Source of the DNA: an uncultured virus (IMG/VR IMGVR_UViG_3300037071_001584)
Taxonomy: Duplodnaviria; Heunggongvirae; Uroviricota; Caudoviricetes; Crassvirales
IMG/VR virus record: IMGVR_UViG_3300037071_001584
Location: 58,776-78,775 of that record
DNA length: 20,000 nt
Reading direction: 5' to 3' (one strand)
This document shows positions 18,415-20,000 of this stretch, one piece after another. The number at the start of each line of letters is the position of its first letter. Positions within the stretch are counted from its first letter, which is position 1. The position numbers and the translations under genes are program-made. The notes below the pieces were generated by a model, which saw only the letters and a program-made list of their open reading frames with translations, had not been told where the DNA came from and made no database searches.

Positions 18415-18640
18415 ATCTATTTAGTATATATACTGTAAACGCTTCATTGTCAAATCTCTGATTCATGTCCATAAACAACTTAGCAAACGTTGTTGTCCCA
18501 TCTGGAATAAGTATCGTATACTTACACTGCTTAATCCCCTTAACCCATTCTTTAAACCCTCTAGGTTGCCCTTCTCTAATTATAACTTCTGCTTCAAACC
18601 AAGGTTCTTGTTCTGAGCAATCTTCACTTACTTTTATCAT
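18401..18640 (-). CDS. Hypothetical protein (~79 aa), paralogue of the adjacent gene
   Basis: Likely start MIKVSE at 18640, downstream of the promoter; FKEWVKGI...YTILIPDGTT. Confidence 0.7.
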   Translation of the reverse strand: MIKVSEDCSEQEPWFEAEVIIREGQPRGFKEWVKGIKQCKYTILIPDGTTTFAKLFMDMNQRFDNEAFTVYILNRYGEL

Positions 18641-18656: not shown

Positions 18657-18688
18657 CAAAGATACAAAATATTTATTTAATTTCCAAA
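18657..18688 (-). promoter_or_regulatory. Bacteroidota-type promoter
   Basis: Minus strand TTTG (18688-18685), 20-nt spacer, TATCTTTG (18664-18657). Confidence 0.8.
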
Positions 18689-18707
18689 CTTTTTCTCACT
18701 TATTTTC

Positions 18708-18748
18708 AAAAAAAAAGTCCCTACAGCTTTTTTAAGGCCATAAGGACT
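18708..18748 (-). terminator. Intrinsic terminator closing the putative ncRNA
   Basis: Minus strand GTCCTTATGGC...GCTGTAGGGAC forms an 11-bp stem with 3 G.U pairs (pairs fully only as minus-strand RNA), then a 9-T tract. Confidence 0.75.
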
Positions 18749-18996
18749 CTACCAAAGGTAGCACGGATCTTTAACTAATGTTGTTGTTGTATAAGGTTAT
18801 ATAATATATATAATATTTAACTATTAGGCATAAGAAGGTTTCCACGATTTTTGTCGTGAGCCTCTTGGCTAGCCAGTGTTGTAGAAGTTGTCATACCTTC
18901 AAAACCCGTTATCCCCCAAACTCATCCTGTGAGCAGTCCCGTTTCAATCTTTAAGGGGGCAACTACATCCTAAACTAGTTGCTTAATATTTTACTT
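18708..18996 (-). ncRNA. Candidate structured non-coding RNA (~290 nt), family unknown
   Basis: Flanked by a promoter and a terminator, several nested hairpins, only a 25-codon ORF noticed. Confidence 0.5.
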
Positions 18997-19001
18997 GAGC
19001 A

Positions 19002-19033
19002 CAAAGATAATACATTAATTTGACATATGCAAG
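19002..19033 (-). promoter_or_regulatory. Bacteroidota-type promoter for the candidate ncRNA
   Basis: Minus strand CTTG (19033-19030), 20-nt spacer, TATCTTTG (19009-19002). Confidence 0.75.
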
Positions 19034-19062
19034 TATTTTGGCAATTATTTTCAATATATTTG

Positions 19063-19081
19063 TATTAGGTAATAGCTTTTA
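19063..19081. promoter_or_regulatory. 19-bp upstream box, copy 3
   Basis: TATTAGGTAATAGCTTTTA. Confidence 0.75.
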
Positions 19082-19242
19082 TGAAAAATAGACTTTTTAA
19101 AATATTTTTTTCTAGAAAATTTTTCATGAATGTGAGAGTGGGCTAACCCAAGATCATACCCCGACTCTTTTCAAATTTTGGGCATACCCGTTCACTTAGA
19201 GCGGCTTGCAAAAACATATCACAAACGTATAAATGTATTATT

Positions 19243-19788
19243 ATGGAAATTACGCAAAAGGTTGCAGAGAACATTATCGAGAGTAGAGTTATCATTGAGG
19301 AAGCTATGACACCATATAAAGGTGTTGAGGTTACATACGTAGGCTTTACTGACGCTGAGGGTGAACAATTCTTATGGAATGATGAGGACGGTGACCCTGA
19401 CCCATCTAGACCATTCGCTATTGTATCATTCAATGCTATGAACTTGCATTTGCTTGAGCAGAGTGTTGATGAGTATCAGGCAGGTATGTATGATGAGTGT
19501 GTGAACCACAACTTGTCAGTTCGTATGGACGCTGATAAAGCTCGTGAATTGTCTAAAGGCACTCCAGGTACGTTGATTTGTCATAATGTTCATCTTAAGG
19601 ATGAGGATGGTGAATTGATGTACGATGAGAAGACTGAAGAGCCTGTTATGGGCTTGTTGGTGAAAAGCTTCGCTCCAGTAGCTGCTAAGTTTGCTAAGAA
19701 AGCTAGTCTTGCTGACATCTTGGCTAAAAGAGCTCCTAAGGAAGAGCCTAAGGCTGTACCTGAGAAAAAGGTGAAGATAACTGCCTAG
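19243..19788 (+). CDS. Hypothetical acidic protein with a Lys/Ala/Pro-rich tail; first gene of the opposite strand
   Basis: 181 aa, AT-rich leader, strong T-ending codon bias, followed by a terminator. Confidence 0.85.
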   Translation: MEITQKVAENIIESRVIIEEAMTPYKGVEVTYVGFTDAEGEQFLWNDEDGDPDPSRPFAIVSFNAMNLHLLEQSVDEYQAGMYDECVNHNLSVRMDADKARELSKGTPGTLICHNVHLKDEDGELMYDEKTEEPVMGLLVKSFAPVAAKFAKKASLADILAKRAPKEEPKAVPEKKVKITA

Positions 19789-19796
19789 ATTGAGAT

Positions 19797-19820
19797 TGCC
19801 CCTTCGGGGGCATTTCTTTT
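19797..19820 (+). terminator. Intrinsic terminator
   Basis: TGCCCC-TTCG-GGGGCA (cUUCGg loop) followed by TTTCTTTT. Confidence 0.9.
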
Positions 19821-19854: not shown

Positions 19855-19995
19855 AGTGTTTACTTTGTCCTATATATGTTACCCGAGCTGTTTACCTTAT
19901 GGTTACAGTATGTTTACGTTAGTGCTACGTGTGTCTACGTTGGTGCTCTCTGTGGGGTTACTATCGTTTACAGTATGGTTACTGCGTGTTTATAG
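19855..19995 (+). repeat. Degenerate ~11-bp phased repeats with a G(T/G)TTAC-like core
   Basis: TAC cores at 19861, 19880, 19893, 19904, 19915, 19926, 19936, 19959, 19969, 19980 and TAT at 19991. Confidence 0.7.
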
Positions 19996-20000
19996 TATCC

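Follow-up and report, generated by a model that had tools for sequence, protein, structure and literature searches.

The DNA analysed here (the window) spans 20,000 nucleotides (nt) and forms the final 20 kb of a 78.8-kb IMG/VR record, IMGVR_UViG_3300037071_001584. Matches to Crassvirales families were obtained for its capsid, portal, terminase, tail-ring and auxiliary capsid proteins, and Cellulophaga phage phi14:2 is the nearest cultured relative, its capsid protein being 60% identical. A 104.8-kb record (G005) represents the same phage, identical to the window across the 1.5 kb compared. Our subject lies in a 575-bp gap between a plus-strand gene for a 181-residue protein, which starts at 19243, and a long minus-strand operon that starts at 18640 and runs through PhoH, GroEL-like, terminase, portal and capsid genes. 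Here, on the minus strand at 18708-18996 and with the PhoH gene 2.5 kb downstream, sits a self-contained unit of promoter and box, 161-nt core, AU-rich tail and terminator. That this unit is a real structured RNA gene we consider highly probable, and comparison of its homologues shows that it belongs to a family of pseudoknotted non-coding RNAs, conserved in a narrow clade of uncultured crAss-like phages and without catalogued relative. As an earlier reading of the window (the sequence-only reading) had claimed, the core stands out by its guanine plus cytosine (GC) content, which is 44.7% as against 33.5% for the whole window and 18-32% for other intergenic stretches.

Conservation of the gap, at about 71% identity and with visibly compensatory changes (blastn, alignment), was seen in several of 30 related loci gathered via the PhoH protein. 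A search pattern for the invariant core retrieved 23 IMG/VR contigs with 20 distinct cores, and a looser version 22 stretches of metagenome and a single contig of 104 kb filed under a metagenome-assembled genome (MAG). A second pattern, drawn independently from a different part of the RNA, retrieved the same 23 IMG/VR contigs and, as the 24th, that of the window's own phage. Our covariance model (R1), built on 20 sequences, matched 41 of 43 sources with E-values of 5e-22 or better and 34 distinct sequences among them; the two negative sources are chance pattern matches. Overall, homologues reside on 24 IMG/VR contigs, about 20 metagenome contigs and the one MAG-filed phage contig, and each of seven near-complete genomes carries exactly one copy. 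The MAG-filed contig (L080, DASVUV010000089.1) is crAss-like, 104 kb long and thus about the size of G008, and has the RNA and a tRNA-Thr arranged as in loci L015 and L042 of G008; its filing in an Allosphingosinicella MAG is probably a binning artefact rather than a host signal.

With the region and a typical family member as queries, blastn found no match among 50,697 GenBank phage records. Rfam 15 (4227 models) gave no match in the window at the gathering threshold and, in a permissive scan of the region, chance-level hits only (E at least 0.15); eight homologous loci had none at E up to 1, and ARAGORN found neither tRNA nor tmRNA in the window. The novelty that had been supposed for the RNA therefore holds against Rfam, and a literature search found no RNA of this kind in Crassvirales. 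It is possible that the motif is among the 10,006 candidates of the IMG/VR screen by Fremin et al. 2023 (PMC10690425); the contig numbers and the core motif do not occur in the readable part of its supplement, the alignment, model and position files being unreadable.

Four helices of the core (P1 to P4) were recovered by RNAalifold, and a pairing between the flanks of the P1 loop and a strand inside P3 was first spotted by eye. Across the 34 distinct sequences, standard pairs occupy 95.8% of cells, as against 34.5-47.8% in controls with slid partner strands; two-sided (compensatory) changes affect 25 of 38 pairs (8-12 in the slid controls), the covariation score is 0.493 (0.040-0.110) and none of 500 shuffles reaches any of the observed covariation values. 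The loop pairing has two parts, PK-A and PK-B, which are paired in 100% of cells and together make up a single helix, interrupted by a 5x5 internal loop (UAGGA/ACACU) that never varies; because this helix crosses P3, the core is a true pseudoknot. PK-A occurs in six haplotypes, including UUAUU/GGUAA, UAAUU/GAUUA, AAGUU/GGCUU and UUAUA/UAUAA besides the UAGUU/GGCUA of the window, and PK-B in seven, including UACA/UGUA, UAUU/AAUA, UAUG/CAUA and UACU/AGUA besides the window's UGUA/UACA. When state changes were counted on a tree built without the tested pair columns, each variable pair had changed at least 5-6 times in PK-B, 1-3 times in PK-A and at least three times in P3 (two variable pairs), with pairing always kept. 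P3 variants are GCGAGGU/ACCUCGC, GCAAGGU/ACCUUGC and GAGAGGU/ACCUCUC, the apical hairpin of P2 differs from lineage to lineage, and P4 varies in loop and length with indels that are not multiples of three. Amid this variation, 32 unpaired columns are invariant. The GGGU of the junction between P2 and P3 may in addition pair with a 3' segment, GCCU (18829-18826; RYYU in relatives), and so extend P3, a weak case in that only one-sided GC/GU and UA/UG changes were seen.

Much of this fold had been anticipated by the sequence-only reading. Its GCAACTA/TAGTTGC stem is P1, present and invariant in relatives, and the covariation it looked for among homologues is strong, as the count of compensatory pairs above illustrates. 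CCCC/GGGG (P2), GAAGGT/ACCTTC (P3) and CACGA/TCGTG (P4) all covary, whereas the CTCA/TGAG pairing drawn inside P2 and the AGCC/GGCT hairpin drawn inside P3 are not conserved in relatives. TGGCTAGCCA, taken to be self-complementary, is really the 3' strand of the pseudoknot with the P1 loop. Positions of these elements and of the signals around them are listed in the table.

Table. Elements of the RNA unit and its surroundings (window positions unless a locus is named; P, helix; PK, pseudoknot pairing).
Feature	Position	Strand	Remarks
Upstream promoter box AAAAGCTATTACCTAATA, 18 nt	19080-19063	minus	far-upstream block of three-part promoter
Middle promoter block TTGAAAATAATTG	19042-19054	minus	in alignments, GAAAATAAT nearly invariant upstream of -33 element
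Core promoter	19002-19032	minus	-33 TTG 19032-19030, 20-nt spacer, -7 TATCTTTG 19009-19002
Conserved 161-nt core (R1 match)	18984-18824	minus	126.8 bits, E 2e-21
P1 hairpin GCAAC(UA)/(UA)GUUGC	18959-18982	minus	14-nt loop with both pseudoknot 5' strands and invariant UAGGA
PK-A 5' strand UAGUU	18973-18977	minus	pairs with GGCUA 18874-18870; 4 of 5 pairs compensatory
PK-B 5' strand UGUA	18964-18967	minus	pairs with UACA 18883-18880; 3 of 4 pairs compensatory
P2 stem CCCCC/GGGGG, apical part variable	18913-18958	minus	5 of 5 pairs covary, 14 haplotypes
Junction AUAACGGGUUUUG, consensus AYGGGUUUUG	18900-18912	minus	nearly invariant
P3 long-range helix, GAAGGU 18900-18895 / ACCUUC 18839-18834	18834-18900	minus	encloses core strand and P4
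Invariant core strand AUGACAACUUC-UACA-ACACU-GGCUA-GCCAAG	18864-18894	minus	3' strands of PK-B and PK-A, start of mini-ORF
25-codon open reading frame (ORF) MTTSTTLASQEAHDKNRGNLLMPNS	18817-18894	minus	judged not to be a gene
P4 hairpin CACGA-CAAAAA-UCGUG, then invariant GGAA	18843-18858	minus	7 of 8 pairs compensatory
AU-rich tail, 23.5% GC	18762-18823	minus	not conserved
Intrinsic terminator	18708-18749	minus	12-bp hairpin 18749-18717, T9/U9 run 18716-18708
Separate promoter of downstream operon	18657-18690	minus	-7 box 18664-18657; marks end of unit
tRNA-Thr(UGU) upstream of RNA	L015:2591-2664, L042:439-512, L080:1613-1686		G008 lineage only

The signals that bound the unit bear out what had been read from the window: a minus-strand promoter with TTG, a 20-nt spacer, TATCTTTG and the 18-nt box, a terminator of hairpin plus T9 (not listed by a simple terminator scanner), and a next gene with a promoter and -7 box of its own, which makes the RNA a stand-alone unit. 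We take the promoter to be of the Bacteroidota type, with the consensus TTG/TAnnTTTG. Transcription would start near 18995, about 7 nt past the -7 box, and in 29 of 33 loci that box ends 15-18 nt ahead of the model start. Downstream, a run of at least six T lies within 260 nt in 31 of 33 loci, mostly right after a hairpin, and a complete new promoter stands between terminator and next ORF in 27 of 29. The first downstream gene falls into at least seven different clusters, the commonest encoding an uncharacterised 79-residue protein; the upstream neighbour is mostly a divergent gene. In the G008 lineage the promoter is separated from the RNA by a tRNA-Thr(UGU), which stops 12 nt short of the model start, and tRNA and RNA would be co-transcribed; one other lineage has an extra 90-nt leader in this place.

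The box of the RNA promoter ties the unit to head genes. On the minus strand of the window it occurs again at 9793-9776, in the portal promoter, and at 7276-7259, in the promoter of a gene for a 351-residue protein ahead of the capsid gene, so that three minus-strand copies, plus one overlapping plus-strand match, face a chance expectation of 0.22. When we looked for a diversity-generating retroelement template or another repeat of the region, these promoter-box matches were all that was found elsewhere in the genome. Box promoters (box AAAAGCTATTACYTAATA) form a very small class, with 0-3 per genome in G004-G013, and are found at the RNA in six of the seven RNA-bearing genomes, at the gene ahead of the capsid gene in G005, G006, G007, G008 and G004, and at the portal in G005 and G013; the exact box has no copy in phi14:2. 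Co-regulation with portal and capsid, as originally proposed for the RNA, is thus borne out by a promoter type that recurs at these places across genomes. According to the text available of a preprint on phi14:2 (10.1101/2020.03.07.982082), middle genes of that phage have three-part promoters read by the host polymerase, and unexplained early non-coding RNAs come from elsewhere in its genome. Given the rare box at the RNA, capsid-operon and portal promoters and these three-part promoters of phi14:2, our RNA is very probably made by the host polymerase along with the head genes, the timing being inferred. At the RNA, the box (AAAAGCTATTAC) covers the start region of the plus-strand promoter from which the gene for the 181-residue protein is read in the opposite direction (TATATTTG, 19055-19062), so one bound factor could switch both promoters.

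The RNA is not a fixture of these phages. A model search found no homologue in phi14:2, in the related genomes G002, G004 and G013, which are 92-100% complete, or in G001, which has the closest PhoH and a genome only 76% complete and in which a matching promoter leads directly into a protein gene. In G004 (L018:3200-3520), G002 (L012:3949-4228) and L155-L163, a box promoter of the same kind precedes a different conserved, ORF-free stretch of about 300 nt, with 79-81% identity across nine contigs (G004, G002 and seven more), that runs without a terminator into an ORF starting MVYFISDG..KIGKSK; this could be another RNA in the same position, or else a long structured leader. Missing as it is from close relatives, in some of which something else fills its place, the RNA is an accessory cassette at a position able to hold other contents, and would be dispensable to the phage.

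Our preferred reading, which we regard as reasonably likely, is of a stand-alone, accessory structured RNA that acts in trans and is made with the head genes. Host RNA polymerase would start about 7 nt after the Bacteroidota-type -7 box and stop at the intrinsic terminator to yield an RNA of about 290 nt, whose 5' 161 nt fold, as the covariation shows, into P2, P3 enclosing P4, and PK-A/PK-B. The folded RNA would then act in trans, the 32 invariant unpaired nucleotides providing a binding or active surface, and its partner at the head-assembly stage may be a small ligand or else a factor of host or core-phage origin. As a moron-like cassette, it would be an accessory and not an essential part of the phage.

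A number of points weigh against this reading. The insulation of the unit and the lack of a conserved downstream gene are the sole arguments for action in trans, and the RNA unit has the same orientation as the operon behind it in 31 of 31 loci, which a role in cis would predict likewise. No specific molecular target is supported. Start, end, abundance and timing of the RNA are read from sequence signals only, and every member found belongs to the same narrow clade of environmental crAss-like phages. As regards the fold, the P1 stem is invariant (GCAAC/GUUGY), so that covariation speaks neither for nor against it, and GUUG, its 3' strand, might find an alternative partner in the CRAC of the core. 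The alignment was fitted to a model for nested helices; the pseudoknot pairings lie outside that model and were therefore not favoured by it. Folding energies are unremarkable both for the 289-nt unit (z = -0.71; 53 of 200 shuffles fold as well) and for the 161-nt core (z = -0.23; 69 of 200 shuffles as good). Structural support is, in short, comparative and not thermodynamic.

A partner or target of the RNA was also searched for. ORFs of 13 genomes were clustered, G012 (unrelated) and G001 (incomplete) were left out of the count, and the seven RNA-bearing genomes compared with the four related RNA-less ones: no protein cluster is in all seven RNA bearers and absent from all the RNA-less genomes, the closest candidate being a 215-residue structural-module protein that is present in 7/7 but also in G004, and 29 clusters are common to all seven bearers and all four others. 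Pfam found no RNA-binding, CsrA, RNA ligase or reverse-transcriptase domain among the 89/162 ORFs searched (leftward module plus small late-operon ORFs). A duplex scan against positions -40 to +20 of all ORFs in the seven genomes gave no consistent antisense target (best mean Z -0.90), a weak negative in view of the odd structures printed, and one that is neutral towards a role as binding RNA.

One form that action in trans could take, unlikely to our minds as a specific proposal, is that of an RNA-only device for counter-defence or host takeover: a folded decoy or sponge that would capture a host factor or signalling molecule. Such an RNA would be highly expressed and catch, with its invariant internal loop and junctions, a target that would otherwise act on the appearance of capsid, portal or terminase. 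The insulated cassette, its coming and going among close relatives and the swappable position would thereby be accounted for. Sponges of the CsrB/RsmZ type combine a CsrA-family partner with loops rich in GGA; the GGA motifs here are two invariant ones (UAGGAU, GGAAAC) and one frequent one.

Just as unlikely is a leader acting in cis, a riboswitch-like or put/nut-like element that would decide on terminator read-through into the morphogenesis operon. The unit does head the operon always and in the same direction, its terminator lies 64-216 nt downstream of the core throughout, and the conserved junctions and pseudoknot are aptamer-like. The architecture resembles that of the lambda pR'-6S-tR' unit and of HK022 put. 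Riboswitch aptamers, HK022 put, lambda nut and the lambda pR' 6S leader likewise sit behind a promoter, before a terminator and at the head of a late operon, and conserved junctions are a further point in common, held here by covarying helices and a pseudoknot. What sets our RNA apart is the complete promoter behind the terminator in all but two of 29 loci, the AU-rich and unconserved spacer between core and terminator, and a first downstream gene that varies. Terminator stems vary as well while the core is invariant, so there is no conserved alternative pairing between the two, and the search gave no sign of an expression platform. These points speak against a riboswitch or cis-acting leader; a part in read-through keeps a low probability.

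A self-cleaving or otherwise catalytic RNA, one processing its own transcript or a neighbouring tRNA for example, appears less likely again. It may be envisaged on account of the compact pseudoknotted core with 32 invariant unpaired nucleotides and of the tRNA-Thr(UGU) 12 nt upstream on the same transcript. That tRNA is found, however, in one lineage only (G008, L042, L080), and there is no match to an Rfam ribozyme at E up to 10. An HDV-like (hepatitis delta virus-like) nested double pseudoknot has the order P1-P2-P3-P3'-P1'-P4-P4'-P2' and cleaves at its 5' end, whereas the strand order here is PK5'-P2 hairpin-P3 5'-PK3'-P4 hairpin-P3 3'; the HDV-like/theta ribozyme topology was rejected on these grounds.

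That the RNA serves head assembly or DNA packaging in the manner of the phi29 packaging RNA (pRNA, RF00044), the loop-strand pairs being intermolecular and building a ring on the portal, is improbable. Like pRNA, a phage RNA gene product of about 170 nt, ours is near that size and has its own promoter and terminator; its rare promoter box is common to RNA, portal and capsid-operon promoters across genomes, so it would be expressed with the head/portal machinery on which pRNA acts. The covarying loop pairings are possibly intermolecular, as covariation is compatible with such pairing and does not separate intramolecular from intermolecular PK-A/PK-B contacts. A pRNA, as the indispensable partner of portal and packaging ATPase, should be found wherever these are. 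Yet phi14:2, G002, G004 and G013, which have most gene families in common with the bearers, the 29 clusters included, lack the RNA, and this absence from close relatives with the same portal and terminase families weakens the packaging idea. Moreover, neither an ATPase nor a portal variant co-occurs with the RNA, and there is no RF00044 match. The RNA would be dispensable in its clade and belongs to another phage family with another packaging system; a pRNA of the phi29 type is thus disfavoured.

Very improbable is a micro-peptide gene, MTTS[VIT]TL[AVI]SQ..., to which the RNA structure would be secondary. The 25-codon ORF noticed at the outset is present, and its ATG and first ten codons are kept in 34 of 34 sequences. 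They are conserved because the nucleotides are: past codon 10 the ORF stops at 11-82 codons across the 34 homologues, and the 3' block GUGGAAACCUCG, though conserved, falls in three different frames, giving GNL, WKPR or VETS depending on the phage. Variation is confined to codons 5 and 8, which coincide exactly with the covarying pseudoknot positions, and an SD-like (Shine-Dalgarno-like) GAGGU abuts the AUG without a spacer and is paired within P3. Hence the conservation is not at the peptide level, in line with the sequence-only reading, and a small protein gene was rejected for want of a kept length and frame. Equally improbable is an origin or primer transcript, a middle-promoter RNA forming an R-loop in the AU-rich stretch as at the T4 and T7 origins: the unit does lie in a divergent region between two gene modules and has a strong promoter followed by a stretch of 23.5% GC, but it is missing from close relatives, its AU-rich part is unconserved and followed by a terminator, and it has no iterons.

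Among other known systems, GOLLD (RF01998), ROOL (RF03087) and the T4 stable RNAs C and D are, like the RNA described here, phage-encoded non-coding RNA genes with a conserved complex structure, pseudoknots and an orphan function, and co-transcription with a tRNA is a further likeness that is confined, here, to one lineage. They differ in that neither sequence nor model matches and that our RNA is much smaller than GOLLD or ROOL; with a core of 161 nt as against more than 500 nt, membership in this class of large ornate RNAs was rejected. Closer by phylogeny are the early long non-coding RNAs of phi14:2 (g004-g006 junctions), ORF-free promoter-to-terminator frames from the same phage group. 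In contrast to our RNA, which heads the morphogenesis module behind a box promoter for host polymerase, they belong to the early region and to another promoter class.

Several further features of these genomes came up alongside. Early or leftward regions of G005-G013 and phi14:2 have several ORF-free stretches of 300-1300 nt per genome near the divergent point, which are candidates for further RNA genes; among those of phi14:2 are the junctions for which highly expressed non-coding RNAs have been reported. The plus-strand gene for the 181-residue protein, which had no tblastn match among phages, apparently has a leader of about 175 nt (19069-19242) with GC-rich segments (GTGAGAGTGGGCTAACCC..., GGGCATACCCG) and only chance-level matches to Rfam. 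Its terminator lies at 19797-19812, before an ORF-free stretch of about 500 nt (19860-20000, continuing as L083:13890-14060) with clustered short repeats GTTTAC, GGTTAC and GCTACG that may be iterons, an origin or a promoter cluster. The leftward module of G005 (L084:9552-L085:18103) encodes a NAPRTase/NAMPT-like, two GGACT-like, an ATP-grasp and two Peptidase_C26/GATase proteins, as well as a phiEco32-like COOH-NH2 ligase, a class II ribonucleotide reductase-like protein and a thymidylate synthase; the late operon of the window phage contains PhoH-like and GroEL-like genes.

As crAss-like phages are among the most abundant phages known and their non-coding RNAs are almost unexplored, the family described here may be of wider interest. 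Its covariation record is unusually clear, including that of a pseudoknot with a conserved 5x5 internal loop, and the 161-nt core is small enough for probing, crystallography and cryo-electron microscopy. The rare promoter element that it has in common with portal and capsid genes is a handle on late regulation in phages of Bacteroidota. A role for the RNA as ribozyme, aptamer or decoy, should one be proven, would mean a new RNA class.

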